Shown: in pieces, positions 3,325 through 25,403 of the stretch
Position numbering within the stretch: position 1 is the first letter of the stretch
Layout: every line of letters begins with the position of its first letter
Assembly: GCA_963725245.1 (NCBI GenBank)
Contig: CAVRYC010000006.1
Span: 3,347 to 67,346 of the forward strand
Length of the DNA: 64,000 bases
Direction: 5' to 3'
DNA from: an uncultured Acidobacteriaceae bacterium
Lineage (GTDB): Bacteria; Acidobacteriota; Terriglobia; Terriglobales; Acidobacteriaceae
Notes under the pieces: model-generated
The model's database searches: none
The model's input: only the letters and a program-made list of their open reading frames with translations
What the model was told of the DNA's origin: nothing
Program-made: the position numbers and the translations under genes

Positions 3325-3395
3325 CCGCCGAGACGCGGAGTGCGCGAAGAAAGGTAGGCAGATCACTGTAAGCGCAGGCAACTGGCAGGAATACC

Positions 3396-4262
3396 ATGGA
3401 ACTTGGCACCTGTAAGCTCTGTCTAAAGGAAAAACCTCTCGTCCGCAGCCATCTGATGGCTCGAGGGGTCCATGATTTCTGCCGCACGCCAAATGACAAT
3501 CCTATTTGGAGACGAGTAAAGTCATTATGCAGTCCAGCCTACGACTCGTCCGCTGCATCTGCGGGGAGTGTGACGGCGACATACTGAGTCGTGCAAGCGC
3601 GAGCAAATCTGGGCCCTTTTGCCGCTGCTTGCGGACAGCCGGCAAGATCTGGACAATTTCCTTTTCCAAGACATCTTGCTGGAGGACACACCCGGAGCTC
3701 AGCGATGGCGACTCGGAAAATGTACGCGGCATCAAGGAGGGATACCCAGAGATTGATGTCGCGAAGCTCGCACTCATTTTATCGCAATGGGGGTCAAGAT
3801 TTGGAAAGCATCGGTCCACCATGGAGGAAGGCTGGCCTTGAAACAGAGCCGCTCAAATCAGCTTGCCAAGTATGGAGAATTCGTGTCGCTGCTCTTGCGC
3901 CTGCTCGGGAAGGCTTCCGAACTCGATATGGACCGGCGTTGGCCGTAGGAGTCATACCACCTGCGGTAAAGACGAAAGGAATCTGCCGCCCAGACGCGGG
4001 GGTCCGCCGAGAAATCCGCCAGAGAAAATGGAACAGACTGGACTTTGCTCACAGGAATTCAGAATTCGACAGTAATTGGATCATGCTAGTCGGGATACGA
4101 TTTCCTCGTTTTTTGCACTTGGAAGCTGATTCTGCGATTCGCCGTTATCTGCGCTTGGTAATCACCTCCAACAAGTATTGTTTCCCATGTGATCGACAGG
4201 ATCGGCAAGTTATCAAGCAGTGTATCATTCAAGATTGCCTTCTCGTTCAAGGCTGCACGTGA
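3396..4262 (+). pseudogene. fragmented Cys-rich ORF of unknown function in a visibly lower-GC patch
   Basis: Starts MELGTCKLCLKEKPLVRSHL. A second CxxC (CICGECDG) lies in a different frame. The best reading hops between all three + frames. No family recognised. Confidence 0.25.
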
Positions 4263-4321
4263 GGCTCGCGATCATCTTGCTGAGAATCTAAAAAGGTAAA
4301 GATCGCATAAGAAAAACCGAT

Positions 4322-5454
4322 TTGCAAAGTGTACGCATGCCATCGAATCACTCGTGGAATATTGACTATGAATCACGACAGATTGCACGACGATCATTGG
4401 GTTCGAAAAAGCAGGTTAGGTCTGGCATTACTGATTGCCTTGAGCACAACCAGAAGCAAAGTCGCGCGACTCAAATAAATATCGGCCAACTCCTCATCAT
4501 CGGCTTCGACGGGACCGGGATGTCTCCGCGCCTCGCTTCCTTGCTCACGAAGATTCAGCCGTCGGGCGTGATTCTGTTTGCCCGCAACATCGCTGCCGCC
4601 GAACAGACGCACGCGCTTCTGCGGGAATGCCAGAAGTGCGTGGCCACGCCTCTATTTACTTGCGTGGACCTCGAAGGTGGCTCGGTGGACCGTTTCCGCA
4701 ACGTGATCGGTCGGACGCCTTCTGCGGCAGAGGTTTTTGCCACAGGCAGCCGCGCCCTCTATCGCAAGCATGGGTGGTTGATCGGAGAGAATTGCCGTGC
4801 GCTAGGCTTCAACGTGGATTTTGCCCCCGTGCTCGACTTAGCCTTCGAGGCTTCGCGTTCGGTGATGAGTTCGCGGGCGGTTTCGGACGATCCTAGGCAG
4901 GTGGTTATTTATGCACGCGAATTTCTGCGCGGATTAGGCGAGGCCGGAGTGCTCGGCTGCGGCAAACACTTCCCCGGACTGGGCGAGGCCACTCTTGATA
5001 CACATCATGAACTGCCCAGCGTGGAAAAACCGCTGCGCAAATTGTGGGACGAGGATCTGGTTCCGTATCGCGTTGTCTGCGGCGCGAATTGCCTATCATC
5101 ATGGTTTCGCATGCGGCTTATTCGGGGGTCACAAAGGACGGACCAAAGAACGAACTCCGGCATCGCTATCGAAAAAATGGATCACCGGCATTTTGCGCAA
5201 GAAAATCGGTTACAATGGCCTGGTCGTTCGGACGATATGGAGATGGGCGGCGCTCTGGCGGCTGGCCCGATCGAGCAAGTGACGGTCGGGCACATCCGCG
5301 CCGGGGGCGATCTTGGCCTGATCTGTCACAAGAAGAGATCATTCTGCGGGCGCACGAATCCCTGATCCATGAAGCTGAACGCGACGGCCAATTTGGCCGC
5401 CGCGTGCGAGGAATCGGCAGGGCCGTGCTGTTGCGCGTTCAAGCTCGCGTTTAA
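4322..5454 (+). CDS. nagZ: beta-N-acetylhexosaminidase (glycoside hydrolase family 3, NagZ-like), at least 4 apparent frameshifts; both ends uncertain
   Basis: GQLLIIGFDGT, VILFARNI, GFNVDFAPVLDL, KHFPGLGEATLDTHHELP, IIMVSHAAY, GLVVSDDMEMGG. These motifs are recovered from ORFs 4322-5365, 5044-5454 and 4995-5282. Confidence 0.8.
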
Positions 5455-5598
5455 GAAGAAGGTTGATAACAATTCCGGCGCGACGCCGCGTTCCCGCTCC
5501 CACTTCCGCACGAGTCGAAAAGCTAACGCGGCAGCTCTGGGAGTTCGGGGAAGAAATCCGGCTGGGTACGCTTGCTCGCTCGGGAAGAAGGCTGGAGC

Positions 5599-6813
5599 AT
5601 GATCGTTGCCGGTGTGATGAGCGGCACTTCGGCGGACGGAATCAATGTGGCGCTGGTGCGGTTCGCCTCCGACGGAGCTGGACGGGCCAAAGGCCCGTCA
5701 CCACACAAACACCTGCGCGCAACTTCGCGCTTCTGGCTCACGAAGAATATCCGTTCCCTGCCCGATTCGACGCGCAATCCTGGAAATGATGAACGCGGAG
5801 TTGGCCCGCGTTGCGGATCTGGCCCGGCTGAATTTTCTTCTCGGCGAACTGTATGCCGAGGCAGTGGGGAAGACTGCGCGCAAGCATCGCGTGAAGTTGA
5901 CCTGGTTGGCTGCCATGGACAGACACTGTATCACCAGGGAATGCCAGAGCGATTTCTCGGGCGACGATTGGCAGCGACTTGGCAGACCGGGGAAGCCGCG
6001 GTGATGGCGGCGCGGCTGGGCGTGCCGGTGATTTCTGATTTTCGTCCCGCGGATATAGCGGCGGGAGGGAAAGGTGCGCCGCTCGTACCGTTCTCGATTA
6101 TCTTTTTTATCGCGATCATGTATCGGGACGCTGGCACGACCGCATGCAGGGCCGGATTGCGCAGAATATCGGTGGAATTGCGAATCTAACGGCGATTCCC
6201 GCGGGCGCTTCGCTGCACCAATTAGTCGCCTTTGACACCGGGCCCGGCAACATGGTGATCGATGCGGTGATGGAGGAACTTTCGCAAACGCTATGATCGT
6301 GATGGCAAGGTTGCGGTGTCTGGGCGAGTGCTGAATGGCGTGATCACGCAGTTGCTGCGGGCGCGGTTTTTTCGGCAGAAGCCTCCACGGACAGCGGGCC
6401 GCGAAGAATTTGGACGCGAATATGTCGGCAGATTTCTTCAGGTGTGCCACGGCGCCCGCAAGCCCGACGTGGTGGCAACGGCAACGGGCTTGACCGCGCG
6501 GTCCATCGCCGAGGCAGTGCAACGATTCGTGATGCCGCGATTTTCTCCACGGCGCACGCTGCGCAAACACCAGATGATTGTCTCGGGCGGAGGGGCGAAG
6601 AATCTGACACTGATGGCTATGTTGCGGGATGAGATCGCAACCCTCGGGATCGGGCTACGCTTCTCGGATGATTTCGGCCTTCCGGCGGAAGCGAAGGAAG
6701 CAGTGGCGTTTGCCTTGCTCGCGCATGAGACGTGGCATAGGCGGCCATCCAATGTGCCCTCGGCTACGGGAGCCAGGCGGGCGGCGATTCTGGGAAAGAT
6801 CTCCTATGCGTGA
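5599..6813 (+). CDS. anmK: anhydro-N-acetylmuramic acid kinase, at least 4 apparent frameshifts
   Basis: MIVAGVMSGTSADGINVALV, LVGCHGQTLYH, ISDFRPADIAAGGKGAPLVP, FDTGPGNMVID, and the C-terminus MIVSGGGAKN..FALLAHETWH. The reading is spread over ORFs 5572-, 5645-, 5463- and 6316-6813. Confidence 0.8.
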
Positions 6814-6844
6814 GGCGGCAGCGCAAGAAGGACCAGCGCAAGAA

Positions 6845-6920
6845 AGAATTGTCATCCTGAGCGAAGCGAAGGACCTGCTTTGCGCCCGCTCCCGATACAC
6901 CACCACCAGGATGACAATTC
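6845..6920. repeat. GTCATCCTGAGCGAAGCGAAGGACC-family element bounded by a 14-bp inverted repeat
   Basis: gaattgtcatcctg (6845-6858) and caggatgacaattc (6907-6920). Related copies at 19845-19929, 21807-21918 (reverse orientation) and 56013-56136. Confidence 0.9.
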
Positions 6921-8424
6921 TGTTGCTAGTCACCGCCGGAGTGGTGCTGCCTCTCCTCTCCTGTTCCCAAGCTCCCGATCCCACCACGCTGGTGATGATT
7001 ATTGAAAGCAGCCCAACCAATCTTGATCCCCGAGTCGGGATTGACGCGCAGTCGGAGCGCATTGGCGAACTACTCTTTGACGCGCTGCTGACTCGCGATG
7101 AGCACCTAAATGTTCAGCCCGGCCTGGCGGAGCGTTGGGAGATTCCGGATCCCTTGACCTACATCTTCCACCTGCATCCCGGCGTAACCTTTCACGATGG
7201 GCGCCCGCTTACCTCCCGCGACGTTAAGTGGACGTTCGACTCGCTGCTCGAGGGAAAGATTCGCGGCACGAAGTCGGCGGCATACCGTTTCGTGGACCAC
7301 ATCGATGCGCCCGAAGAATTCACCGTGGTATTTCATCTGAAGGAGCCGAACGCGACCTTGCTGTGGAACCTCTCGGAGGGGGCGATCGGCATCGTGCCCT
7401 ACGGAATGCTCGACGAGATCACGCGGAATCCGATGGGCTCGGGACCGTTCAAGTTTGTCAGCGCCGAGCAAGATAAAGAAGTCGTAGTCGAGCGCAACGA
7501 CAATTACTGGGGTGCAAAGGCGCGCCTGGCCAGGGTACGCTTCACCGTGGTGCCCGACGCAACCACGCGGGCGCTGGAATTGCGCAAGGGCAGCGCCGAT
7601 GCCGCGATCAATGCTCTTACTTCCGACACCATTGTGGCGCTGGAGCGCCAGTCGAATTTACAGGTTGAGCGCGCGCCGGGCACGGTGCTTTCCTATCTCG
7701 CATTTAACCTGCGCGACCGGACCTTGCAGGATGTGCGGGTTCGCCGGCGATCGCGTATGCCATCGACCGCGGCCCTCTTCTCGAATACATCTGGCGCGGC
7801 TTCGCACAACCGGCTCGGAGTGTGCTCCCGCCGCAAAGCTGGGCGTATGACCCGGATGTGGCGGCCTACCCACACAATCCGGAGAAAGCCCGCCAGATGC
7901 TCGACGCCGCCGGCTACCAGGCTCGCGATGGCGTTCGCTTTCACTTGACCATGAAGACGTCTACGGAGGAATCCACGCGGTTGCTGGCTGCGGTGTTGCA
8001 GCAGCAGTTGCGGGATGTGGGCATTGCGCTCGATATCCGCACGTTCGAGTTCGCCACATTTTTTGCCAACGTCACCAGCGGTGCTTTCCAGGTTTATTCT
8101 TTGCGCTGGATCGGCGGCAACGAAGTCCGGATATTTTTGAGTATTCCTTTCACTCCAACCGATTCCCGCCCAAAGGCGCCAACCGCGGTTTCTATCCAAT
8201 CGGAGGATCGACGGGTTGATCGACCGGCGCGCCGCGAAACCGATCAGAATGCCCGCCGACGACTGTACTTTGAAGTTCAGGAAGTGCTAGCACAAGATGT
8301 TCCGTATATAGACCTGTGGTACTTCGATAACGTGCTCGTGCACACGCGGCGCGTGCGGAACGTGACCCTGAATCCGTCGGGAAATTACGACTTTCTGAAG
8401 ACGGCGGAGATCAGTAGCCAGTAG
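6911..8424 (+). CDS. ABC transporter substrate-binding lipoprotein, family 5 (peptide/nickel type), 2-3 apparent frameshifts
   Basis: Signal peptide plus lipobox MTILLLVTAGVVLPLLSCSQ; ESSPTNLDPR, ERWEIPDPLTYIFHLHPGVTFHDG, PMGSGPFKF. Continues in ORF 7822-8424. The ATG at 6911 lies inside the right arm of the 6845-6920 repeat. Confidence 0.8.
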
Positions 8425-8446
8425 CCAGTTGCCGGTTACCAGTACG
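8412..8446. repeat. one-armed tandem heptamer array
   Basis: cagtagc cagtagc cagttgc cggttac cagtacg. Overlaps the stop codon of the preceding gene. Confidence 0.7.
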
Positions 8447-8484
8447 CGAAGCATCCGCAATTTTCAGCGTGTTACCATCGTCTC

Positions 8485-9276
8485 TTGAAAATTCTTTTTA
8501 TCGGTGACATTTTTGGCCGCCCCGGACGGACAATCGTAAAAGATCGCCTACCTGAACTGCGCCAGCAGCACGGCGTGGATCTGGTCATCGCCAACTGCGA
8601 AAATGCCGCGGCTGGCTTCGGAATCACACCTCCGCTGGCGGAAGAGCTTTTCGATTTGGGTATCGACGTGATGACCACTGGAAATCACGTCTGGGACAAA
8701 CGCGAAATCATCGAATACTTCCACATGGCGGACGGCAATCCACACAGTCCGGCGCGCCGCCTGCTGCGGCCTGCGAATTTTCCGCATAACCTGCCCGGTT
8801 GGGGAGTGTACGAAAGCCAAAAAAACGGCGTCGGTTATGCCGTCGTGAACCTTCAGGGGCGTGTGTTCATGGGGTCAAGCGACGATCCCTTTCGCTACGC
8901 CGATCGACTTCTGGAACAGATAAAGTCGAAGGTCGTGTTGGTGGATTTCCATGCCGAGGCCACGTCCGAAAAAATCGCCTTCGGCTGGTACGTCGACGGA
9001 CGCGACACCGCCGTGGTGGGCACGCACACGCACATCCCCACCGCGGATGAGACCGTCTTACCCAAGGGCACCGCCTACATCACGGACGTCGGCATGACCG
9101 GCCCGTACGACAGCGTCATTGGGGTCAAGAAAGAATTAGTGATTGAGAAATTTCTCAGCGGGATGCCAGCCCGCTTCGAAGCGGCCAACGGAGACGTCCG
9201 ACTGTGCGCCGTGCTGGTCGAGTGCGATGCCCAGACCGGGCGTGCCACGCGGATGGAACGGCTGATGCTGCGGTGA
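8485..9276 (+). CDS. ymdB: YmdB-family metallophosphoesterase (2',3'-cyclic-nucleotide phosphodiesterase-like)
   Basis: Intact 263-aa ORF with TTG start. MKILFIGDIFGRPGR, VIANCENAAAGFGIT, TTGNHVWDK, DFHAEATSEK, GTHTHIPTAD. Confidence 0.85.
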   Translation: MKILFIGDIFGRPGRTIVKDRLPELRQQHGVDLVIANCENAAAGFGITPPLAEELFDLGIDVMTTGNHVWDKREIIEYFHMADGNPHSPARRLLRPANFPHNLPGWGVYESQKNGVGYAVVNLQGRVFMGSSDDPFRYADRLLEQIKSKVVLVDFHAEATSEKIAFGWYVDGRDTAVVGTHTHIPTADETVLPKGTAYITDVGMTGPYDSVIGVKKELVIEKFLSGMPARFEAANGDVRLCAVLVECDAQTGRATRMERLMLR

Positions 9277-9376
9277 ACCTCTCCCTCATGTGCCGACTCC
9301 TCCCGTTACGACCGTAGCTCCCAAGCCCGATTTCTCTTGCAAGACAGCAGCAGCCAGGCATTCTATAGTAACTAAT

Positions 9377-11211
9377 ATGCGATGGTTGCCAGCAGGCATT
9401 GTTTTGTTGCTTGCCGGAATGTGTCTGGCCACAGACACTCCCCCGGCCGCTGCGCCATCGCTCTGCTCCAATTCCAAGGGCGCGCCCGCCTGCCAGGGTC
9501 CTGTCAAAGACCTGAAGGCCGCTCGTCAAGCATTCGCGCGCGGGCTGAAACTCGAGAAATCGAAAAATCTGGACCAAGCCTTTTACGAATTTGAGGAAGC
9601 GTCTCGCCTGGTCCCGCAAAACGTGGAATACCTGACCGCGCGGGAGATGACGCGTCAACATCTGGCCGGAATGCATCTGCAACGCGGAAACAGCGACCTG
9701 CTCGATGGCCGGCAAGTGGAGGCGCTGGCGGAGTTCCGAACGGCGCTCAATCTCGATCCGCAGAACGAATTCGCTCAGCAACGGATAAGCGACGCCCTGG
9801 GCCCGCGCCGGTGCGCGTTGCAAGCCCGCCGCAAGTTGTCGCCAGCGCCGAGGCGATCGCCGCTAAACCGATCGACGGACGCCACGACTTCCACTACCGC
9901 GGCGATTCGCGCGGTCTGCTCACGTCAGTCGCTGCAAGCTATGGGCTGACGGTGATCTTCGACGATACCTTCGCCAGCCGCCGCGTGCGCTTCGATATTG
10001 AGAATGCCGATTTCGCAACCGCCCTGCAGGCGGCCTCCGCGGCCACCAAGAGCTTCAGCGTGGCCCTGGAAGACAATATTCTTTTTGCCAGCGCTGACAC
10101 CCAGAAAACCACCGCTCCTACGACCGCATGGGCATGCGCTCGTTTTACATCGCGGGCGGCGATCCTGCCAAGGATTTGAACGACCTGATGAGCACACTGC
10201 GGACGCTCTTTGAGTTCAAGTTCGTGAACCTCAACGCCGCGTCGAGCACGATCACGGTGCGCGGGCCGAAGGCGGCACTGGAAGCCGCCACCCAGTTTCT
10301 CGAAGAGTTCGATAGTCCGCGTCCGGAAGTAATGCTCGATCTGAAAGTCTTCCAGGTGAGCCACACCTACATGCGTACGATCGGGCTGCACGTCCCGGAT
10401 ACTTTCAATCTTTTCAATATTCCGGTGGCCGCACTCGCGGCTCTTGGCGGACAAAACATTCAGAGCCTGATCAACCAACTGATTGCCTCTGGCGGTATCA
10501 ACCAAGCCGGCAATCAGACCATTTCCGCCCTGCTCGCGCAATTGCAAGGCCAGCAGAATTCCATCTTCAGCCAGCCGCTCGCGACCTTTGGCGGCGGGCT
10601 CACGCTGATGGGCCTTAGTCTGGATAATCTCTCCGCCGCGCTTACCATGAATGCCAGTTCCGTCCGCGAGCTTCAGCACGTCCACCTGCGGGCCTCCCAG
10701 GAAAAGGACGCCACTTTTAAGCTGGGAGAGCGCTATCCCATCCTCAACGCCAGTTTTGCGCCGATTTATAACAGTCCGCCATCGCGCAGGTCGTCGGGAA
10801 TAACTCGTACACTGCGGCCTTTCCTTCCGTCAATTATGAGGACATCGGGCTCACCCTCAAGGCGAAGCCGCTGGTGCACAACAATTCAGACGTGGCCCTC
10901 GAGCTGGAGCTACAATTCCGCACTTTGGGCGCTACAAGCTCAAATGGCGTTCCGATAATTTCCAATCGTGAGTACAAGGGCGGGATCATGCTCAAGGAAG
11001 GTCAACCGGCGGTCGTAGCGGGAATGGTCACTGCTTCCGAGCAGAGGAGCCTGAGCGGTCTGCCCGCGTTTTCCAAGTCCCGGGCTTCGGCCTCCTCACC
11101 TCGCAGAGCACCAAGCAGGAAGAGAACGATGAGCTGCTGATCCTGATCACGCCGTACGTGGTCCGTAGCCCGGAGCGCACCGAACCGCGGGAAATCTGGA
11201 TGAGCAAGTAA
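9377..11211 (+). CDS. secretin-family outer membrane protein (type II/III secretion system protein, GspD/PilQ-like) with a TPR-like N-terminal region, about 4 apparent frameshifts
   Basis: Signal peptide MRWLPAGIVLLLAGMCLA. Secretin C-terminus recovered by frame stitching: GGIMLKEGQPAVVAGMV..LSGLPAFSQVPGFGLL..ELLILITPYVV. Pieces in ORFs 9290-, 9811-, 10128- and 10874-. Confidence 0.75.
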
Positions 11212-11307
11212 ATCGGGTCATCTGGATCGGGCAAGGGGTCTTTTGAAGTCGGAGCTTCATTTGGGTTTCAGTGTTCCTTCGATCACCCGATGACCCGATG
11301 ACCCGAT
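11212..11307. repeat. inverted array of ATCGGGTCAT / GATGACCCGAT words between convergent genes
   Basis: Left arm aatcgggtcatctggatcgggc; right arm gatcacccgatgacccgatgacccgatc. Confidence 0.7.
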
Positions 11308-12221
11308 CTACTTCTGGCTCGCCTGGAAATCCACAATCTTCTTTAACAGATCAACGGGCGCACCGCCGGGTACGTTCCGTCCATTGATGAACAGAGTCGG
11401 CGTGGCACTGACGCCCACCGACTTGCCCAGTGCAATAGAGGCTTCGATTCGGGCTTTAGTATCCGGCTTGGCGGCGCAGGCGGCGATTTCGTCGGCACTC
11501 ACGCCCGATGCGGTTGCGATGGCCTTCAGCTTTTCGTCGGCATTGGCCTGGGTGATATTGGCCTGCTCGTCAAACGTCTTCTGGATAAATTTCCAGACTG
11601 CATCATTCGAAGGCTGCCCGGCGCAGCGCGCCCAACGCATTCGATATAGCCGGCGGCTTTCTCTGCCCAGTCGTGCGCAGGCAGCGGAAAATTCTGGAAA
11701 ACAAAGTGGGCCTCGGGCTCCTGCGCCAGCAGTTGCTCAATCCCGGGCGCGGCCTTCGCACAGTGCGGGCACTGCATATCGCTGAACTCGACAATCGTCA
11801 CCGCAGCCTTCGCCGGTCCTTTGGCGGGGCCGCTCACGCCTTTTTCCAGCTTGGCGCGGGATCGTCAAAAGGCTTCGCACCAAAGGGCAGAATGTCGCCC
11901 GAAATTGCATGCTTGCCATCACCACTGACCAGCAACCGATTCTGGTTCGAGCCCTGTGAGTTCGTAATGACTATTGAAACCTCCGCCAGTCCCGGCACTT
12001 CGGAGGGACGAATATCAGTCACCTTCCACGTCACCGTGGGATCGTAGCCAAACATTGGAACAGGAACGAGTCAACCGCGTCTTCGGTGGGCAGAGCCGTC
12101 GGGCTTCCGCCGCGGGTGAAGGGGCCGCTGCTTTGGCCGCCGACTTTGCCGGGGGAGCCGATTGAGCTTGAGCGATAGCGATGCCGGACAACAGAAGACC
12201 AGCGAGCAGTGTGCGTTGCAT
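11308..12221 (-). CDS. DsbA/thioredoxin-fold thiol:disulfide oxidoreductase, secreted, about 3 apparent frameshifts
   Basis: Signal peptide MQRTLLAGLLLSGIAIAQAQ. Active site VEFSDMQCPHCAK. C-terminus VSATPTLFINGRNV. Pieces in ORFs 12015-, 11834-, 11526- and 11308-. Confidence 0.75.
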
Positions 12222-12392
12222 GATTGTCATAGGTTTTGAGTTCGTTTGGAATTCGATTGTTACAAAAAGCGGCGCCGTTGTCATTTCCGAAGCTTCGCCA
12301 GTGGAGAGTCGGGCGACCTGCCCGGCCGCCGAACTGCTGGACCGGCGAGAAGCCCGCCCCTCCATCGAATATTTCATCAGGCGGTCACGGTG

Positions 12393-14036
12393 CTAGAGCT
12401 CCGACTTGGCCGCGATCGGGAATCTCCGCCCATAGCCGAACGCCTTGGCGGAGATCTTGATGCCGGGCGCCGCTTGTTGCCGCTTGTATTCGCTACGCTC
12501 AATCATGCGGATGACTCGCCGCACCAGATCCAGATCGAAATTGCGATTGCGAGCAATCTGTTCGGCCGAGCACAACTCCTCCACGAAGTCCTCGAGAATC
12601 GCATCGAGCACATCGTAGGGTGGCAGTGAATCTGAATCTCTCTGATCCGGACGCAATTCGGCCGACGGCGGCTTCTCGATGGTCGCTTCCGGAATCACTC
12701 TGCGCCGCGAGTTCACATAAGCGCTCAGGCGGTACACCAACGTCTTCGGTACATCCGAGATCACGGCCAACCCACCCACCATATCGCCGTAGAGAGTGCA
12801 ATAGCCGACGGCCAATTCGCTTTTGTTGCCGGTCGAAAGCACTAGCGCGCCAAACTTGTTCGACATGGACATCAGCAGCAATCCGCGGGCGCGGGACTGA
12901 ATGTTTTCTTCGGTGACGTCCTGCGGCAGCCCGGCAAACACCGGCGCAAGCGTCTGGCGCACGGCTTCGTAGATCTCCTCGATCGAGAGCAGTTCGAAGC
13001 GAATCTTGAGGTTGCCGGCGAGTTCGCGCGCATCGTCAATGGATCCTCGCGAGGAGTACGGTCCGGGCATGCCGACTCCGATAACGTTCTCGGGGCCGAG
13101 CGCATCGGCCGCAATCGACGCGGTGAGCGCGGAATCGATGCCTCCGCTGAGTCCGATGATCGCCCGCTCGAAGCCGCATTTGTGAACATAATCTCGCGTG
13201 CCCAGAACCAGCGCTTCATACGCGCTGGCTTCTTCACCCACAATCTGTGCGGTGCATGTCTCCGCGTCAGCTTCTGGGAGTCGAAATAGATCAGGTCTTC
13301 CTCGAACGACTTCCCTTGCGCGATTACCTGTCCCGTCGGGCGCAATCACCAGGCTCGATCCGTCGAAGACCAGGCTGTCGTTGCCCCCGACCTGATTGAC
13401 CATCGCGACCGGAACTTTCTGATTCCGCGCGATGGCCGTCAGCATGTCGCGGCGCAGTTCGCGCTTGCCCAGCCAAAACGGCGATGCGGATATGTTGAGC
13501 ACGAAGTTGCCGCCGGCGCGGACCAATTCTTCCACCGGGTCGACGCCATAAAGCCGCCGGTTCCAAAAGCGCTTGTCGTTCCAGGCATCCTCACAGATGG
13601 TCAAAGCCATCTGCTTGCCGCAAAAGCTGAAGAGTTGCTGGCTCTTGGCGGGAGCGAAGTTGCGCATCTCGTCGAAAACGTCATAGGTGGGCAGCAGCAT
13701 CTTCGACTGGATGAAGTCGATGCGCCCTTCGCGCAGCAGGGCGGCGGAGTTCATCACTTTCTTGCCGGAGTCCGCATCGGCCGGGGTTACCGTCCCGCAG
13801 ATCACGGCAATGCCCTGCGTTTCGGCGGCGATCCTCTCGACGGTCGCGCGACAGCGCGCCACAAACGACGGCCTCTCGACCAGATCGCGCGGCGGATAGC
13901 CGCAGACGGAGAGTTCCGGAAACAGAATCAGGCCGGCGCCAGCGCTCCGCGCCTGCAGCGCAAACTGGATGATCTTGGCAGCGTTGCCAGAGAAGTCCCC
14001 CACGGTGGGGTTGATCTGGCCCAGGGCAATCTTCAC
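12393..14036 (-). CDS. nadE: glutamine-dependent NAD+ synthetase
   Basis: CN-hydrolase half (VKIALGQINPTVGDF, LILFPELSVCGYPP, ALTICEDAW) plus synthetase half (GLSGGIDSAL, LSTGNKSELAVGY). GTG at 14036 is preferred over the track start at 14126. Two compensating frame shifts near 13265-13335. Confidence 0.9.
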   Translation of the reverse strand: MKIALGQINPTVGDFSGNAAKIIQFALQARSAGAGLILFPELSVCGYPPRDLVERPSFVARCRATVERIAAETQGIAVICGTVTPADADSGKKVMNSAALLREGRIDFIQSKMLLPTYDVFDEMRNFAPAKSQQLFSFCGKQMALTICEDAWNDKRFWNRRLYGVDPVEELVRAGGNFVLNISASPFWLGKRELRRDMLTAIARNQKVPVAMVNQVGGNDSLVFDGSSLVIAPDGTGNRAREVVRGRPDLFRLPEADAETCTAQIVGEEASAYEALVLGTRDYVHKCGFERAIIGLSGGIDSALTASIAADALGPENVIGVGMPGPYSSRGSIDDARELAGNLKIRFELLSIEEIYEAVRQTLAPVFAGLPQDVTEENIQSRARGLLLMSMSNKFGALVLSTGNKSELAVGYCTLYGDMVGGLAVISDVPKTLVYRLSAYVNSRRRVIPEATIEKPPSAELRPDQRDSDSLPPYDVLDAILEDFVEELCSAEQIARNRNFDLDLVRRVIRMIERSEYKRQQAAPGIKISAKAFGYGRRFPIAAKSEL

Positions 14037-14045
14037 GCTCTTAGT

Positions 14046-14090
14046 GTAAAAGGTCGAGGCGTAGAAGGTCGAGGCGTACCAGAAGCCTGA
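14046..14090. repeat. 3 x 15-bp tandem repeat just upstream of nadE
   Basis: gtaaaaggtcgaggc gtagaaggtcgaggc gtaccagaagcctga. Confidence 0.7.
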
Positions 14091-14186
14091 AGCGCTCAGT
14101 GAAGGTATCCTACCGTCGTGAGTCATGAGTCTTCAGACCTGCGACCCTCCAGCCTCTGAATCGCAATGCTTCAATGCCTCCATCGC

Positions 14187-15172
14187 TCAATGTATGTTAG
14201 CCCAGTTGGGACCTGGGTCCTGGACCCGACCGGCGGCGGCGCGGCGGTCGCCACCGGCGGCGGGGTGCGACGGGTTTGCGGGATTGGACTCCGGCATCTC
14301 TTCTCCGGGACGCCTCAACGTGGGCGCGTTCGCCGGGCGTTCTTCCTGTTTCTTGGCAACGGTTGGTGCACCGAGATCGACTTCCTTTTCGACGCGCACG
14401 ATTTTCTGGCCATCCACCTTCATGGTCTCGACGCGCACCACTTCGTCGCCAACAAAGCGCACAAAATCCACGTCCTGCGGGGGCGTGCCGTAGATCCATT
14501 CTTCGTACTCAACTCCGTCCTCAACTCGTCGGCACGCTCGCGCACTTTCTTTGGCGGACGTCCCTTGGCATAGATCACCATGTCGTGGTTCATTCCCACC
14601 AGCACGTGGTGATTCTTGATCGCCTCTTTGACTTGCGGAGAAACCGTTTCCAGATAGGCCTCGAGCGGCGGACTTGGCATCGAAATCAAACACCGGACGC
14701 AGCAACTCCTTCAGCTCTGGCCCGGTCATCTCCGGAACATACTTGTCGAAGTAGAGATCCACGAAAGAGCCGCGGGCGTTGGCGGAGGGATCGCGAGGGC
14801 GCAATCGGCTCGCACTCCATTCGCACCTGCAATCTCGATGTGCTGGTACCACTTCTGTTTCTTGATGGGACCGCCGTTGATCTCAAAGCGGATGTGGTCG
14901 TCTTTGATGACGATGTCGCTGATGCGGGCCCGGTCGCCCGGCTTCGCGGCCGGTCCCCAGAGCGCCATCAAATGTTGCAGTTCCGGGCCGCTGGGGGTTA
15001 CGGTTCCGTTCTTGAGTTTCAGTCCGGTCTTCCCCATCGGAAAACTCGTGCGGATGTAAACCAGTTCTTCATTGAAAGCGTGGATGATTTCTTGGCGGGT
15101 TTCCTTGGAAATCCTTGGGGGCGGAGTATTCCCGGCGAGCGCCAGCGAGGAGAAGACTAGAAGGATCGCCAA
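14187..15172 (-). CDS. secreted hypothetical protein, 3-4 apparent frameshifts
   Basis: Signal-like N-terminus MAILLVFSSLALAG. Sensible reading continues through ORFs 14726-15172, 14420-14689 and 14187-14852, e.g. VLVGMNHDMVIYAKGRPPKKV and EWIYGTPPQDVDFVRFVGDEVVRVE. No family recognised with confidence. Confidence 0.5.
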
Positions 15173-15257
15173 GAGCCGACAACAAACGAGTCAACTTGGA
15201 AGGACCGCATGCAGCACCCCGGGCCCACTGGCTTAATTATAAACCGCTGCAAAAGCA

Positions 15258-15328
15258 GTTCTCAGTTCTCAGCCCGAGAAGCCGCCGGGCTTAGATGCTG
15301 AGAACTGAGAACCGAGAACTGAGAACTC
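15258..15328. repeat. inverted array of GTTCTCA / TGAGAAC heptamers
   Basis: gttctca gttctca gcccgagaagccgccgggcttagatgc tgagaac tgagaac cgagaac tgagaac. Confidence 0.9.
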
Positions 15329-15412
15329 CGCATCGGTCACCGGCGCTGAGGTACTTCGGTAACGGTGAGCTGTACTTTAAGCACCTGAGGTCAGCACTCA
15401 AAGCAACTTAGA

Positions 15413-17310
15413 ATGGATGCAGAACGGACCAGCCCATCCCCGCGCTTGGGCCGACAGGATTGCCTTTTGCCTTTGAAGCTTCCCATTCCCGCGCGCATTC
15501 CGCTCCTGTACGTCATCCTAGGCGTGCTGCTGGCGATCAGTGTCCTGCCCATGTACTTCTACTCGGCGCAGATCGAGACCATGAACCGGGAGCGCCTCAA
15601 AACCAACGAAATGCTGCTGCAAAATACGGTCACGCGTTCGCTGGCCGACGACATCTCCCAGCACCAGGAAGCGCTGCGCATGATGCTGGCCAATTTGTCG
15701 TCGTCGATTCAGGTAATGATGCTGGCCAATCCCAGCGGGAACGACCTTAGCGCGCAGAAACTTCTGACGCCCGAGCTGCGGGCGATGCTGGAGAATTTTG
15801 TTTCGTCGTCGAACGACATTGCTTATGCCACGCTGCTGAATGCCGATGCCAAAGGAGTTTCCGCCGGGCGTATCGAGCCCGACGCCTTTCTGCAGCGGGA
15901 ACTGGAGCGCGCCTATCAAGCCGCCCGCGAAGGCCGCGTCTATAGCGGCCAGCCGTTGATGGTGGGCAGCGGAAAATCGGCGCGCACGGTCATGTTGGTC
16001 AGTTCGCCGATCATGTATGGCGGACGCTTCCTGGGGATGATCGGGTCGGTGGTGGATATGGACTACCTGATCCGCCGGCTGCAGCAAGTCAGCCTGAGCG
16101 GATTGATGCCCTACGTCGTGGACAGCCAGGGCAGGCTGGTGGCGGCCGCGACGGCGCAATATGCCACCGGGCAGGACATGAGCCACTTCGAGATCGTCCG
16201 CAGCTTTGTGGGCGAAGGCTCGAAAGCCCAGTTGGCGGCGACCCGCGAGTTCACGATTCGCGACGGCAAAGACACGACCGAAATGCTGGGAACGTACAGT
16301 CCGGTGACTTCGCTCGATTGGGCGGTAGTGGTGCAGAAGCCGCGCGAAGATGCCTATCGCGGAATCTACGAGATGCAGCGCACCGGACGCTTGCTGGCAT
16401 GGCTGGCGGTGTTTGTGAGTGTGGGTCTGAGCATTTTTTCGGCGCGGCGCATCACCAGCCCGCTGCAAGTGCTGGCGCAGTCCAGCCGGGCCATTGCGCG
16501 CGGCGATTTTTCCCAGCGCGTGCACCTGAAAACGCGCACCGAGATCGGCGAACTGGCGACCACTTTCAACACCATGTCGGACGAACTGGAACAGTTCGTT
16601 GAAGACCTGAAGCGCGCCGCCGAAGAAAACAAAGACGCTGTTCATGGGGTCGATCCAGATGCTGGCCGGCGCGGTCGACGAAAAGGATCCTTACACGCGC
16701 GGCCATTCCGACCGGGTCACGAAATATTCGCATGATGATCGCGACAGAGATGGGCCTGGATCCGGGATTTCTGGAGATCCTGCGCGTCTCGGCGCAACTG
16801 CACGATGTCGGCAAAATCGGCATCGAAGACCGCATCCTGAAAAAACCGGGCGCTCTGACTCCGGAAGAATTCGAGATCATGAAGACGCACACCACCAAGG
16901 GCGCGAACATTCTGCGTCCGGTGCCGCAGTTGCGCGAGATGCTGCCCGGAATCGAACTGCATCATGAGGCGCTCAACGGCCGCGGATATCCTTATGGTCT
17001 AAAAGGCGACGAGATCCCGCTGCTGGCGCGCGTGATCGCGGTCGCAGACACCTTTGACGCTCTGACCACGAACCGTCCTTACCAGAAGGCGCACGATCCG
17101 GTGGATGCCCTGCGCATCATTCAAAATCTTTCGGGACAGCGCCTTGACCCCAAGGCGGTGACCGCGCTCATGGCGGTGTTTTACCGCGGAGAAATTCGCA
17201 TTCAGAAATCACTGACGCAAACGATCACCGCTGGAATCGACGCGCGCATCGCGTTCCGGCGCCCCGTCGCACCTGTCGATCCTCTCACCGTCGAAACCAC
17301 CCGCACCTAA
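15413..17310 (+). CDS. membrane sensor protein with extracytoplasmic domain, HAMP and HD-GYP (c-di-GMP phosphodiesterase-type) domains, 2 apparent frameshifts
   Basis: HAMP: ITSPLQVLAQSSRAIARGDFSQRV..IGELATTFNTMSDEL. HD-GYP: DPYTRGHSDRV, LHDVGKIGI, HHEALNGRGYPYGL, DTFDALTTNRPY. Frame breaks near 16640 and 16725. Confidence 0.8.
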
Positions 17311-17313
17311 AAA

Positions 17314-17405
17314 CATTTGGTAATTTGGTATTCGTAATTTTGTAATTTGAACCAATCACTTGGGTTTCAAATTACCAAATCACAAATTACACAATTACCA
17401 ATTCC
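17314..17405. repeat. AT-rich inverted heptamer array, second copy of the 447-568 family
   Basis: catttggtaatttggtattcgtaattttgtaatttgaa .. ttcaaattaccaaatcacaaattacacaattaccaattcc. Confidence 0.85.
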
Positions 17406-17442
17406 CTCCTCGCTCGATTCTCCTATAATCGTTGGACACCTC

Positions 17443-18400
17443 ATGATTCAAACTCTTTTTGGCAGTCTGGACGAAGAAAAGAAACCAAGTTTTATTGAGC
17501 GCATGAAGGAGGCCGTCTCGCGCACGCGCGAGAACCTGGCCGAGCGCATCGAAGATGTCGTCTCCATCGGCAAGGAGATCGACCGCTCCACGCTGGACGA
17601 TCTGGAAGCCACGCTGATTGGCGCCGACCTCGGCACCACCACCACCCATGAGGTTCTGGAGAAGCTGCGCGACAAAGCCGATCGCAAGCAGATCAAGGAT
17701 GTGAATGAACTGAAACGGCTGCTGAAAGAAGAACTGCTGGCGATTCTGACCTCGACCGGTGCGCAGCCCGTCACCAAGGTGGACGGCACGCCGGAAGTGA
17801 TCATAGTGGTGGGCGTAAACGGCACCGGCAAGACGACCACCATCGGAAAATTGGCGCAGGTATTTCGCGCGCAAGGCAAAGACGGTGCTGCTGTGCGCGG
17901 CGGATACGTTCCGCGCCGCGGCGATCGAGCAACTCGAAATTTGGGGACAGCGCACGGGAACGGAAGTGATCAAGACGAAAGCCGGGGGCGATCCATCCGC
18001 TGTGTTGTTCGACGCGCTGCAATCGGCAACGGCGCGCAAAACCGATTACGTGATCGTCGATACTGCCGGCCGTCTGCATACCAAGCAAAACCTGATGCTC
18101 GAACTCGAAAAGATGAAGCGCACCGCACAACGCATCGTGCCCGGCGCGCCGCACGAGACTTTGCTGGTGATGGATGCCACCACCGGCCAGAATGGATTGC
18201 AACAGGCGCGGCAGTTCACGCAATCGTCCGGAGTCACGGGAATCGTGCTGACCAAGCTCGATGGCACGGCCAAAGGCGGCGTCGTGGTGGCAATTTCGCG
18301 CGAGTTGGGGCTGCCGGTGCGGTATGTAGGCGTCGGGGAAAAGGCGGGCGATCTGCTGCCGTTTGACGCGAAGGAGTTTGTGGAGTCGCTGTTTGCGTAA
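17443..18400 (+). CDS. ftsY: signal recognition particle receptor FtsY, 1 apparent frameshift near 17888
   Basis: [53 protein letters not shown] at 17443, in the frame of ORF 17347-. Confidence 0.9.
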
Positions 18401-18669
18401 CAGCGGCAGACGGGGCAGTGCGGAAGTATCAGGGCACGTCTTCAGCTGGCCGTACCTCGTAGATGAATCCGCTTCGGGCGAACTGTCGACCCGAGGCCCT
18501 GAGCAGCGAAGATCCTTGGCTGGAGTGCATCGCCAACATACGTGGTCCGGAAAAGATACAGGCGCAACTAAAATTGTGCCGACCCGACGAGGAGGACGAA
18601 GACCCCTACCCCTCGCACTGTAATTGCTTTTCTCCGCGTCTCTGAGCTCCGTGGAGAACTGGTGCGAGA

Positions 18670-19832
18670 ATGACCATCGACGAACAACACATGCGAAGGG
18701 CGCTCGACTTGGCGCGAGCCGGCGTCGGCCTGGTGTCGCCGAATCCGGCGGTGGGCGCGGTTGTGGTGGACGCGTCGGGCCGCGAAGTTGGAGCGGGCAC
18801 GCACACCTATGACGGCGTAAAGCACGCCGAAGTTCTCGCCCTGGAGCAAGCGGGCAATGCGGCACGAGGCGGAACTCTCTACCTGAATCTGGAGCCATGC
18901 TCGCATCAGGGCCGAACCGGGCCGTGTGCCGATGCCGTGATCGCGGCCGGAATCCGCCGCGTGATCTGCTCCATGGAAGATCCGAATCCGCGTGTGGCGG
19001 GTCAAGGATTTGCCAAGCTCCGCGCGTCAGGAATCAAAGTAGAGGTCGGCTTATTCCAGGCGGAAGCCAAGAAGCTGAATGAAAGTTTTGCCAAGTACAT
19101 CCGGCTGCGGCAAACCGCTGGTCACACTGAAATCGGCCATGACCCTCGACGGGAAAATCGCCGACGCCACCAAACCGGGCGCGGAACACAGTCGGAGCCG
19201 CTCGGCCACGCCTGCGACCGAAGGCGCGCGCAGCGGATACCACTGGATCACAGGCGAAGTGGCGCGCGCGCACGTGCAGCAACTGCGCCATCAGAGTGAC
19301 GCGATCCTGGCTGGAGTAGGGACGGTAATGGCGGACGATCCGCTGCTCACCGACCGAAGCGGCCTGCCGCGGCGGCGCAAACTGCTGCGCGTGATCCTGG
19401 ATTCCTACTTGCGCATCCCACCTGCGTCGCGAGTGATCCAGACCGCGGAGCACGATGTTCTGGTGCTGTGTTCCAATGCGGAGGAACAGACGAAGCAGGC
19501 GCTCGAAGCGAAAGGGATTCGCGTACAACAAATATCGGGCCAACGCCGACGGACGGCCAGACTTCGCAGCGATTGTCCGGAGCCTGGGAGAGTTGGAGAT
19601 CACCAGCCTGCTTATCGAAGGCGGAGCGCTGGTAAACGGCGCGGCCCTGGCGTCGGGCGAGGTGGACAAGGTGTTTCTCTACTACGCGCCGAAGATTTTT
19701 GGCGAGGGCGCAGTTCCCTTCATCGCCGGTGAAGATTTGCACGGGCGGGCACAGTGCGTGCAGCGGTTCGAGTTGCATCGCTTCGGCGAAGACTTCGCGG
19801 TCGAAGGCTATTTGCGCGACCCGTACGCGTGA
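18670..19832 (+). CDS. ribD: bifunctional riboflavin biosynthesis deaminase/reductase RibD, 2 apparent frameshifts
   Basis: Deaminase HAEVLAL, LEPCSHQGRTGPC. Reductase LKSAMTLDGKIA, ITSLLIEGGALVNGA. Pieces in ORFs 18670-, 19079- and 19455-19832. Confidence 0.9.
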
Positions 19833-19844
19833 GGCATTGATCAT

Positions 19845-19929
19845 AGTTGTCATCCTGAGCGAAGCGAAGGACCTGCATTTGTTTGCAGCGACGGAATGCA
19901 GGTCCTTCGCTTCGCTCAGGATGACAATT
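19845..19929. repeat. near-perfect palindromic copy of the GTCATCCTGAGCGAAGCGAAGGACC family
   Basis: gttgtcatcctgagcgaagcgaaggacctgcat .. atgcaggtccttcgcttcgctcaggatgacaattg. Confidence 0.9.
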
Positions 19930-19964
19930 GAATTGCTGACAACTTGGATGGAGGTATAGCTCTT

Positions 19965-20623
19965 ATGTTTACCGGAATTGTCGAAGAAGTGGGCAAGGTA
20001 GTAAAGATCGAGCAACCCGGTGAGAACCGCCGCATCACCGTCGAGGCGGCGAACACCCCGAAAGAACTGGGAACTGGCCACAGCGTCTCCGTAAGCGGCG
20101 TTTGCCTGACGGCGCTGGATATCAAAACAAAATCATTCTGCGCCGACTTGGCGCCGGAAACCTGGATACGAACTTCATTCTCACGCATGCACGAGGGCGC
20201 GCTCGTCAACCTGGAGCTGCCGATGAAGGCGGATGGACGCTTCGATGGCCACATCGTTCAGGGCCACGTGGATGGCGTGGGCAAACTGATCGAGTTCGAG
20301 CGAATCGTCGACTCGGAGGCCGGGATTCCGAGAACTGGTGGCTGCACATTGAAATCCCGTCGGAGATCGAGAAGTACACGGTGTTCAAGGGATCGATCTC
20401 GATCGAGGGCATCAGCCTTACGGTCGCCAAGCTCGAAGGCAATCGCTGCACGATCGCCATCATTCCCCATACCGTCGAAATGACCAATCTCGGATCGCTG
20501 AAGCCGGGAGACCCTGTGAACCTGGAAGCCGACGTGATCGCGAAGTATGTCGAGAAGATGATGAAAGGCGAGCCCGCGCAGAGTTCGATCACCGTGGAGG
20601 AATTGGTGCGGCAAGGATTTTAG
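19965..20623 (+). CDS. ribE: riboflavin synthase alpha chain, 1 apparent frameshift near 20320
   Basis: MFTGIVEEVG, GHSVSVSGVCLT, GHIVQGHVDG, KGSISIEGISLTV, IIPHTVEMTNL. Confidence 0.9.
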
Positions 20624-20625: not shown

Positions 20626-20714
20626 CAGTTGTCGGTGTCAGTGGTCAGTTGTCAGCGAATGCCATCGTGTTGTCGCCGTTCGCTGACCACTGATCACTGA
20701 GAACTGGCCACTTG
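20626..20714. repeat. inverted array of CAGTGGT/CAGTTGT heptamers between convergent genes
   Basis: cagttgtcggtgtcagtggtcagttgtcagcgaa .. ttcgctgaccactgatcactgagaactggccactt. Confidence 0.8.
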
Positions 20715-21497: not shown

Positions 21498-21806
21498 GGC
21501 ATGAGATGCCAGCGCGGCTCAAGGGCTGCGTATCTGCGGGTAGCGGGCCGGTTTCCGAGTAGCCAGCAAACCGCCGAGTGACGAGCCGATTCCGGAGTTG
21601 TGAGCGCTATGGCGATATCAAACCTGGGGGCCCTGTCCGCGGTGGAAACCGGCAGTTACTAGTAAGGTATTAAACAATTAGTACGGATACCCCCCTCCCC
21701 CCCGAGCTATTGGAATCATGGGGTTAGGTGGTTTTGACGGTCCAAATCTTTGGTTCTTAAGGTAGTTATATGTAAAATCTTGCCGGATAAGGACTTGCGA
21801 GCTCCG

Positions 21807-21918
21807 TTCGCTTCGCTCAGGATTTCGGCAGCGGGCTCCCGCTTCGCTCACGCCTCAAACTGCGAGATCCTTCGCTTCGCTCAGGATTTCGGCAGCGGGC
21901 TCCCGCTTCGCTCACGCC
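21807..21918. repeat. two direct copies (64-bp period) of ttcgcttcgctcaggatttcggcagcgggctcccgcttcgctcacgcc
   Basis: Copies at 21807-21854 and 21871-21918. Contains the reverse complement of the TCCTGAGCGAAGCGAA core. Confidence 0.85.
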
Positions 21919-24036: not shown

Positions 24037-24673
24037 CTAGGCTGCCAGCCGGTCCTGCGGGGTGTTCAGGTTGAAAAAACTCTGCTCGGAAAAGCCGGCT
24101 GCCGCTAGTTCGTCCTCTTCGATCACCCGGACGGACACACTGGAAAATGCCGCATCGATCTTGTACTTCCCTGCCCGCAGAGCCTGCTCGGCGGCTACGG
24201 AAAAGTCGCGTCGATAGACGGCACAGAGTGGCTGGAATCCTTTGCTGGTGCGAGGCACGGTGACGATGGCATGGTTATCTTCGTCTTCGGCGGTCGCGAA
24301 AAGAAACGTCGAGCAGTTCCCGGGAGACGAAGGGCATGTCCACGGCGAGCATCAGGTTCAACTCGGCTGTTGAATGCACGAGCGCGGCGTGAATACCGGC
24401 GAGGGGACCGCATCCGGGAAAAATGTCGGCCACGACGGATCCATATTTCGCAGCGTCATATTTCGCGGCGTCATATTTCGAAGATCCGTACTCCGCAAAC
24501 TTGCCCGGGTCGCCGACGATCGTCACCTTGTCGCAGACCGCGCCCATCACGGTAAGCGCGCGATCCAAGAGTGTTTGCCCGCCAAAATCCAGAAAGGCTT
24601 TATCCGCACCCATGCGAGAACTCTTGCCTCCGGCGAGAAGAAAGCCCATGCGCAACAGCTCGGTTTGTGCCAT
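24037..24673 (-). CDS. mobA: molybdenum cofactor guanylyltransferase MobA, 1 apparent frameshift near 24290
   Basis: GFLLAGGKSSRMGADKAFL, GPLAGIHAAL, LAVDMPF. C-terminal part in ORF 24037-24258. Confidence 0.8.
24440..24484. repeat. 3 x 15-bp in-frame tandem repeat inside mobA
   Basis: tccatatttcgcagc gtcatatttcgcggc gtcatatttcgaaga. Encodes SSKYDAAKYDAAKYG on the minus strand. Confidence 0.85.
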
Positions 24674-25310: not shown

Positions 25311-25358
25311 CCTGCGAACGGGGCCCGAAACGCGAGCGGCTTGCGCGGTCGGCATTTC

Positions 25359-25403
25359 TTTCCGATTCCCCTCTTTCCGATTCTCCTTTTTCCGATTATC
25401 CTG
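25359..25403. repeat. 3 x 15-bp tandem repeat
   Basis: tttccgattcccctc tttccgattctcctt tttccgattatcctg. Confidence 0.8.

Follow-up and report, generated by a model that had tools for sequence, protein, structure and literature searches.

The closest described counterparts of the element treated here are the heptamer arrays of Xanthomonas, where Rehm et al. 2015 (PMC4692102) found 70–75 convergent inverted pairs of GGGAATC arrays per genome; these arrays vary between species at the same sites, and the authors call their function unknown. Among the short tandemly repeated repetitive (STRR) sequences and long simple sequence repeats (LSSR) (Mazel 1990; Mrazek 2007, as cited in PMC4692102 and PMC4679880), heptamers are, according to the citing papers, the most abundant long-unit class, and MacGregor 2015 (PMC4679880) described direct arrays of TAACTGA in marine Beggiatoaceae, some Cyanobacteria and Bacteroidetes. 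Here we analyze an intergenic hairpin (locus D) whose arms are inverted arrays of degenerate 7-nt words, together with seven further loci (A–C and E–H), all but the one-armed B of the same inverted-array design, in a 64,000-nt stretch of DNA (the window; contig CAVRYC010000006.1) from an uncultured member of the Acidobacteriaceae (Terriglobales). The NAD synthetase (NadE) of the window is 74–90% identical to those of peat and soil metagenome-assembled genomes of this family.

An earlier note on this DNA knew of no description of such a design. The Xanthomonas arrays provide one, and the acidobacterial arrays are a further case of it; they stand apart in belonging to another phylum, in having many words per genome and a class of octamers, and in the evolutionary detail available for them. 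The GGGNATC arrays of Xanthomonas likewise consist of tandem heptamers, typically about four units, which are about 90% intergenic and lie on average 28 nt after a stop codon (PMC4692102), and two facing arrays on opposite strands can form a stem-loop. The GGGNATC motif lengthened by a single base gives the acidobacterial octamer GGGTGATC/GGGTCATC. However, a single G-rich word with the potential to form G-quadruplexes (four or more G3 tracts) dominates in Xanthomonas, whereas dozens of words of both 7 and 8 nt occur here: only the ATCGGGTG/ATCGGGTC octamers resemble GGGNATC and most units (GAACTGA, AATTTGT, GCTACGA) have no G-tract. Xanthomonas also belongs to another phylum, and its arrays are under-represented between divergent genes, where two of the eight window loci lie.

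The cyanobacterial STRR sequences share with our arrays an intergenic location, the presence of several tandem heptanucleotides per genome and slippage as the proposed cause, but as summarized in the citing papers they are mainly direct arrays, with neither an octamer class nor loop flipping reported. A cyanobacterial origin of the window itself was ruled out by the placement of NadE in the Acidobacteriaceae/Terriglobales and by the count of the HIP1 palindrome (GCGATCGC), which is not enriched (just 3 copies in the window). The TAACTGA arrays are intergenic sets of 2–6 copies, often directly before start codons, and the stop codons of the unit limit gene overlap; the commonest unit here, GAACTGA, differs from TAACTGA by one base. 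Beggiatoaceae BOGUAY, in contrast, has 169 direct sets with one indirect repeat and a single word, and a site for a translational regulator was proposed there (PMC4679880). Likeness between our units and the published heptamers was not significant (19% versus 10%, p 0.09).

Arrays and arms were called with Tandem Repeats Finder (TRF), and the arms were paired with an inverted-repeat tool and with our own inverted-repeat finder. All eight loci are present (Table 1). TRF called both arms with period 7 or 8 at loci A, D (15256–15327), E, F and G, one arm only at C and H, and the one-armed array at B; the inverted-repeat finder paired the arms at every two-armed locus. The window contains 5 strong period-7 arrays and 2 strong period-8 arrays, against none of either in 30 dinucleotide shuffles, and in the same comparison no other period from 6 to 15 was enriched. 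By our own finder it contains 10 long inverted-repeat loci, 6 of which have period-7/8 arms, whereas 40 shuffles gave means of 1.5 such loci and 0.075 periodic ones (maximum 1 periodic); seven of the 10 are the two-armed loci of the earlier note. The RNA folds of the seven two-armed loci range from -26 to -55 kcal/mol with z-scores of -3.4 to -8, locus A being weaker than the others (-30 kcal/mol, z -2.6). Individual values are -36.7 kcal/mol (z -5.5) for D, -53.7 kcal/mol (z -8.1) for F and -44 kcal/mol for C; the fold of one-armed B is not significant (z -1.4). The inverted period-7/8 arrays are real and statistically exceptional.

Gene context was established from Pfam and NCBIfam matches, our own dicodon gene model and tblastn anchors. 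The earlier note had seen heptamers throughout, with octamers in one case; C is indeed octameric, and in addition A and E mix 7- and 8-nt units. It had placed the loci after stop codons or between convergent or divergent genes. C and F lie between convergent genes, and B, E and H each follow a stop codon within a co-directional gene pair; A and D do not follow stop codons but lie between divergent start codons.

Table 1 Positions of the arrays, hairpins and associated features in the window (D, central locus; N, site adjoining nadE)
Feature	Position	Strand	Units or structure	Call
A	447–568		mixed 7/8-nt units AATTTTGT/AATTTGG at 449–485, complement at 520–564	TRF 449–562; inverted repeats
B	8412–8446	plus	one-armed, five CAGTAGC/CAGTTGC units	TRF 8412–8444
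C	11206–11313		octamer hairpin, ATCGGGTC/ATCTGG... and GATCACCC/GATGACCC	inverted repeat; TRF 11280–11307 (one arm)
N-site remnant	14115–14192	minus	decayed array/hairpin ATTGAGCG ATGGAGGC ATTGAAGC ... ACTCATGACTCACGAC
Sigma-70-like site	15236–15265	minus	perfect TATAAT and -35-like CTGAGA	consensus match 10/12
D, left arm	15256–15273		CAGTTCT x2 + CAGC	inverted-repeat pairing, 16/16 complementary
D, loop	15274–15296		23 nt, CCGAGAAGCCGCCGGGCTTAGAT
D, right arm	15297–15328		CTGAGAA x4 including one CCGAGAA variant	TRF 15298–15327
E	17314–17405		AATTTGG/AATTTTG units, 7- and 8-nt mixed	TRF 17315–17403; inverted repeat
F	20626–20714		CAGTTGT/CAGTGGT units; one TGAGAAC unit in right arm	TRF 20626–20712; inverted repeat
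G	30927–31016		GCTTCGA/GCTACGA units	TRF 30929–31009; inverted repeats
H	31581–31677		paralogue of G	inverted repeat; TRF 31643–31673 (one arm)
Split gene, mutS	570–3185
Split gene, peptide-binding protein	6629–8424
Split gene, unnamed	10128–11211
Split gene upstream of nadE	14420–15172
Split gene, ftsY	17443–18400

For comparison we used 80 loci of about 21 kb around nadE (L001–L080) from other species of the family, 1.53 Mb in all, across which synteny is kept; all 80 represent a single syntenic region and the counts therefore share ancestry. The same design recurs throughout this set, so that the family extends well beyond the window. The 1.53 Mb hold 157 long inverted repeats, 72 of them with period-7/8 arms by autocorrelation (37 at lag 7 and 35 at lag 8), and most of the period-7/8 hairpins of the relatives occupy the same intergenic sites. 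Arrays of period 7 number 101 in 1.6 Mb and those of period 8 number 27; by our dicodon model 92 of the former and all 27 of the latter are non-coding, whereas period-6 arrays are coding in 33 of 40 cases and periods 9–12 are nearly absent. An inverted partner lies within 170 nt of 44 of the 92 non-coding period-7 arrays and 19 of the 27 non-coding period-8 arrays. About half of the arrays are one-armed, as would be expected if arrays come first and pairing second.

The density of hairpins declines as NadE identity to the window decreases, from 7.6 per 100 kb at 86% or more through 4.1 (82–86%) and 1.7 (78–82%) to 0 below 78%. Related genomes differ in copy number by whole units at the B, C, D and F sites. 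Even genome pairs that have diverged by only 3.0% and 4.4% in nadE (97.0% and 95.6% identity) differ by 1–3 units per arm at D and F, and among these close pairs we found one collapsed C hairpin and, in the pair 4.4% apart, different words at the E site. The orthologous sites as a whole thus indicate elements that are long-lived at their sites yet change rapidly by single-unit steps. Taken over all orthologues, the changes comprise gain and loss of units, loop flips, loss of an arm or collapse of the hairpin, and drift or replacement of the word.

Locus D illustrates most of these changes. Its right arm reads CTGAGAA CTGAGAA CCGAGAA CTGAGAA followed by CTC, and the element lies midway between the divergent start codons at 15172 (minus strand) and 15413 (plus strand). 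The first unit of the left arm supplies the -35-like CTGAGA of the sigma-70-like site, the best such match in the scanned bases 1–20000, which points toward the operon of nadE and the gene upstream of it and which, by consensus match, is a predicted promoter. The flanks of D, including ATTATA, are conserved in 32 orthologues; between them a GTTCYCA hairpin is kept in 25 of the 32 and is missing or decayed in about 7. Units per arm vary from 0 to 6 with different numbers on the left and right, some orthologues retain one arm alone, and in L019 the word has changed to GTTGCCA. Five genomes carry the loop core GAGAAGCGCCGGGATTAGAT in forward and 7 in reversed orientation, and between L002 and L011 the whole interior of D is inverted within the same flanks, together with an inserted miniature inverted-repeat transposable element (MITE). 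This MITE, of 150–190 nt with terminal inverted repeats TGTTTCATAAAT, sits within the loop of the GTTCTCA hairpin in L002, L011 and L031 and was seen in both orientations, flipping together with the loop.

The other sites were compared in the same manner. At C the palindrome is longer than the 11212–11307 given in the earlier note: the locus is there, but it occupies precisely the interval between two convergent stop codons, and its palindrome takes in AAGTAA and CTACTT, thus reaching into both. Depending on the genome, the C site contains a hairpin of ATCGGGTG octamers, a hairpin of ATTGAATC octamers that has another loop, a hybrid in which ATCGGGT units lie on the outside and ATTGAATC units on the inside, a palindrome of unrelated sequence (GTCATCCTGAGCGAAGCGAAGGA...) or a collapsed remnant, and the loops of L029 and L016 are inverted. 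A second palindromic family, of fixed sequence (TTGTCATCCTGAGCGAAGCGAAGGACCTGC...) with perfect 33-nt arms, is present in the window at 19847–19927, 21796–21918 and 56011–56132. It recurs many times in the related loci, including the C site of L014, L018, L024, L031 and L042, and looks like a dispersed element of the Acidobacteriaceae similar to a MITE or to repetitive extragenic palindromic (REP) sequences.

Locus F similarly fills a convergent gap, between the stop codons of a ribE-like gene (20623) and of an ABC ATPase gene (20718). Its orthologues are of GTTCTCA type, of the GTGGTCA type of the window (where a single TGAGAAC unit survives), or palindromes without relation to these. L005, L015, L029, L030 and L036 lack a heptamer hairpin in the ribE/ABC gap, which in these genomes is occupied by a third palindromic family (TGGAGAGCCGGGCGTC ... 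GACGCCCG..CTCCA). Locus E starts 4 nt past the stop of an HD-domain gene (17310) and ends about 18 nt before a TATAAT box (17424–17429) upstream of ftsY (ATG at 17443); relatives have a hairpin of AATTTGT, GGTCGTT or AGCTCTT type, a nested composite (L011), or none. Most relatives keep this TATAAT, which is only 13 nt away from the ftsY ATG and implies a leaderless or nearly leaderless ftsY mRNA. Locus A occupies a divergent gap and stops 1 nt short of the mutS start codon (570), which was placed by a match to the MutS N-terminus.

Locus B overlaps the TAG stop (8422–8424) of a peptide-binding-protein gene fragment (7822–8424). Its orthologues keep the array and often have, immediately ahead of the next start codon, a CCTGAGA array that is not complementary to it; in L069 a true hairpin stands at this site. 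In B-site orthologues such as L005, L007 and L027 a conserved 22-nt core (TTTTCAGCGTGATAACATCGAA) is flanked by a post-stop CCAGTAG array and by a CCTGAGA/CCTGACA array adjoining the TTG start of a metallophosphoesterase gene. Locus G lies downstream of the stop of a RibD_C gene (31030, minus strand), and the open reading frame to its left (30143–30925) has weak coding support; this frame also contains an 80-nt duplication (30636–30791). Locus H is bordered on one side by the stop of a TPR gene (31676, minus strand) and on the other by the RibD_C start codon (31554, minus strand). A ninth array, missing from the earlier note, is the decayed remnant between nadE and the gene upstream of it (the N site); intact ATTGAGGC hairpins are found at this site in L002, L021, L026, L028, L029 and L032.

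The earlier note had described an architecture shared without shared sequence and had argued for a common generating process over simple copies of one element. The first part was overstated, as the words form a small related vocabulary: the 119 arrays have 43 distinct consensus units, and 10 of these units contain CTGA. Hybrids and one-step variants connect families (ATCGGGTG/ATTGAATC; GTTCTCA/GTTGCCA/GTGGTCA), G and H are 83% identical over flank, arms and loop, A and E align at 77% across their arms, and in a clustering of the loops the C-site ATCGGGTG hairpins fall together with the ATTGAGGC hairpins found 2.8 kb away at the N site. The second part stands, given the many loci and genomes involved. 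Loops cluster by orthologous site plus a few neighbors, and a metagenome scan with the best conserved loop (TCAARRGNNCNNGGKTTTCRGRTTTT) gave 49 matches, about 36 of which were two sites near nadE; the remainder comprised one further site (L084/L094) and unrelated matches. With about 3 genomic sites in all, the elements are not high-copy copies of one mobile sequence.

The interpretation we prefer, to which we give about even chances of being correct, is that these are long-unit simple sequence repeats (SSRs) kept as palindromes by replication slippage and arm exchange, with only the generic effects of a stem-loop. The elements would be inverted pairs of SSRs with 7- or 8-nt units ('SSR palindromes') residing in unconstrained intergenic DNA of this Acidobacteriaceae clade. 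Arm length changes by whole units between orthologues, and replication slippage would produce such changes; loops of 7–8 nt fall outside the 1–4 nt range that MutS repairs well. A polymerase footprint that favors 7 nt is an idea credited to Mrazek 2007 in PMC4692102 and PMC4679880. The second arm may arise by fold-back or template-switch copying, or by inverted duplication. The interior flips among orthologues show DNA-level recombination between the two arms, and the same arm exchange could keep them complementary and spread unit variants, the word drifting in concert. The elements also decay, by arm loss, collapse to one unit pair, nested palindromes and word replacement.

The same interpretation would account for where the arrays lie. 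Arrays would grow until they reach a constrained base (stop codon, start codon or promoter), which would lead them to border on gene ends. With a stop triplet in most units and a unit length that is not a multiple of 3, the arrays cannot extend a reading frame; stop triplets are found in 27 of the 43 units against about 45% by chance (p 0.03), weakly above expectation. In the cell an SSR palindrome would behave as any gene-boundary stem-loop or cruciform, that is, as a barrier to 3' exonuclease or read-through, or as a topological sink. This effect is probably generic, independent of sequence and orientation and dispensable at individual sites.

Several observations weigh against this account. 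Pure slippage does not predict the composition of the vocabulary, in which CTGA was expected in 5.5% of units and CNGA, expected in 21%, is found in 20 of 43. Slippage alone also leaves unexplained the inverted partner that about half of the arrays have within 170 nt, for which template switching is a proposed source. A mirrored order of unit variants between arms gave a weak signal (3 of 52 cases at the 5% level, mean excess +2) in a comparison of low power, and the counts are inflated by the shared ancestry of the 80 loci. Finally, hairpins are found at convergent pairs in 34% of cases as against 17% of intergenic gaps, they usually start 0–20 nt past a stop codon, and at the C and F sites a missing palindrome is often replaced by a different one. 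These last three findings fit selection for some hairpin.

Rho-independent terminators are also stem-loops shortly past a stop codon, some of which serve both genes of a convergent pair, but the stems here are 16–45 bp (versus 5–12), the loops have a median of 26 nt (versus 3–8), U-tracts are absent and some elements lie between divergent start codons. The 10 nt past the stem contain a mean of 3.2 T, with at least 6 T in just 8% of cases. A terminator consensus scan returned no full array hairpin among its matches, the sole match at D (15280–15259, minus strand) being a short 7-pair stem in the left arm plus loop. Although B, C, E, F, G and H are downstream of a gene on the transcribed strand, A and D are not, and 25 of 62 orthologous C-site gaps (about 40%) have no significant structure. 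Given the missing U-tract, the position of A and D and the structureless C gaps, the elements are not classical terminators, a role that the earlier note had entertained. The genome does use classical terminators beside the array hairpins, as indicated by a textbook example at 32766–32792 (minus strand) with a 10-bp GC-rich stem, a 7-nt loop and T8.

The main rival is that the elements are selected hairpins akin to REP sequences and bacterial interspersed mosaic elements (BIMEs), which would protect mRNA 3' ends, halt read-through without a U-tract or buffer supercoiling, the tandem-word build being merely the easiest way for stems to arise and be repaired. The position of D, exactly between two divergent promoter-like regions, speaks for this possibility. 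Under the twin-domain model negative supercoiling builds up between divergent units, and negative supercoils there favor cruciform extrusion. The very stable folds, the positions past stop codons, the twofold excess at convergent pairs and the C and F gaps, which hold one palindromic family or another in most close relatives, are likewise in its favor. The known functions of REP sequences are summarized in PMC6006769. REP sequences, BIMEs and REPINs (REP doublets forming hairpins) resemble our elements as extragenic imperfect palindromes, as inverted doublets of about 100 nt that form hairpins, in their hundreds per genome, in lying after stop codons and between convergent genes, and in evolving within the genome. 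However, a test for selection at the RNA level, by G-U asymmetry and by the stability of sense and antisense folds, gave no sense bias (sense more stable in 16 cases, antisense in 20). Together with the lack of a U-tract, the many C-site orthologues without significant structure, the commonness of one-armed and collapsed derivatives and the independent variation of left and right unit numbers at D, this makes the explanation a possible one that we hold to be rather unlikely. Irrespective of the direction of the genes, one DNA strand of the syntenic region gave the stabler RNA fold in 29 of the 36 co-directional cases, which may reflect a replication-strand mutational bias, the independent sites being few.

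A less probable alternative is that these are non-autonomous elements, similar to REPINs or MITEs, moved by a hairpin-recognizing HuH-Y1 transposase, with class 3 TnpA_Y1/TIRYT enzymes as candidates. RAYT/Y1 transposase genes exist in Acidobacteria (PMC3733652, PMC6006769); class 3 TnpA_Y1/TIRYT enzymes are concentrated there and tied to repeated 'atypical secondary structures' with a CnGA foot (PMC6006769, PMC3733652), about 600 of which are present in Solibacter usitatus (PMC6006769). The enrichment of our units for CNGA would suit such an enzyme, as would the words that recur, along with a similar loop, at a second site (G and H; C and N; D and F), the hairpins nested in hairpins (E site of L011; C site of L020, L021 and L026) and the difference in E-site word between genomes 4.4% apart. 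However, CNGA is not enriched within 10 nt of the hairpin foot (13.5% versus 13.2% background), and paralogous copies are always close, 0.65 to 5 kb apart, which fits local duplication or conversion better than transposition. Loops are site-specific, even the best conserved being confined to about 3 sites metagenome-wide. REP sequences differ further, as they are copies of one fixed 20–40-nt sequence that has a foot of GTAG type and is linked to a RAYT gene, whereas the arms here are internal tandem arrays, words and loops belong to the site and no foot motif is enriched; GTAG is seen only where a G chances to precede a TAG stop.

The comparison of orthologous sites suggested by the earlier note bore out presence/absence and unit-number variation, but not the target duplications that a mobile element might leave. 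The D, E and N sites yielded no convincing target-site duplication, an ACCGGCG motif on either side of D being suggestive only, and no sharp boundary separates empty from filled sites there, although intergenic divergence limits the power of this comparison. Rfam gave no match at the gathering threshold for the whole window. Lacking a fixed sequence, a target duplication and a dispersed loop, the elements gave no evidence for MITE or REP identity, two possibilities close to those offered in the earlier note.

A related and decidedly improbable proposal is that the inverted arrays are the substrate or product of a hairpin-reading single-stranded DNA enzyme, again with class 3 HuH-Y1/TIRYT as the candidate. 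The arms would then grow by repeated cleavage and rejoining at the CTGA or CCGA in each unit, and the 7–8-nt unit would be the footprint of the enzyme rather than a polymerase slippage length. If true, this would give the 35-year-old puzzle of heptamer repeats (STRR, LSSR, GGGNATC and TAACTGA) a shared enzymatic cause.

We also consider it very doubtful that, by analogy with TAACTGA, the arrays are sites for a protein reading 7–8-nt units of RNA or DNA (S1, Csp or CsrA-like), with inverted pairing masking or exposing the sites: arrays do adjoin start codons at A (mutS) and, as CCTGAGA, directly before TTG in B-site orthologues, an NNNCTGA vocabulary is common to several families and GAACTGA is close to the published unit (PMC4679880), but many words are unrelated (AATTTGT, GCTACGA, ATCGGGTG, GGTCGTT), a word can be replaced at a single site, likeness to published units is not significant and no candidate protein was identified.

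Several other features of the window were recorded. Five genes (Table 1) are each split into two overlapping or adjacent frames and are single genes in the relatives, which suggests indel errors of a long-read assembly, or pseudogenes. Three TTGCGCAA palindromes with 14 nt spacing lie in intergenic DNA at 39083–39134 and resemble an operator array. Further tandem repeats are found at 24442–24480 and 25357–25402 (15-nt units), 54387–54431 (12-nt unit) and 30636–30791 (80-nt unit, the duplication adjoining locus G).

Known since 1990, heptamer arrays are the most frequent long SSRs of bacteria, yet they have no accepted origin or function. The clade studied here is an unusually good natural experiment for these questions, with many words, units of both 7 and 8 nt and dozens of species that share sites, such that alignments directly reveal which units were gained or lost, which loops were inverted, which arms disappeared and which words were replaced. 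Should the SSR palindromes be neutral, they would clearly exemplify palindromes perpetuated by the mutational mechanism that is their own, and would be a caution against calling every strong intergenic hairpin a terminator. If instead the hairpins are transcript ends without a U-tract or topological insulators, they would bear on the annotation of gene boundaries in Acidobacteria, a dominant and poorly studied phylum of soil.

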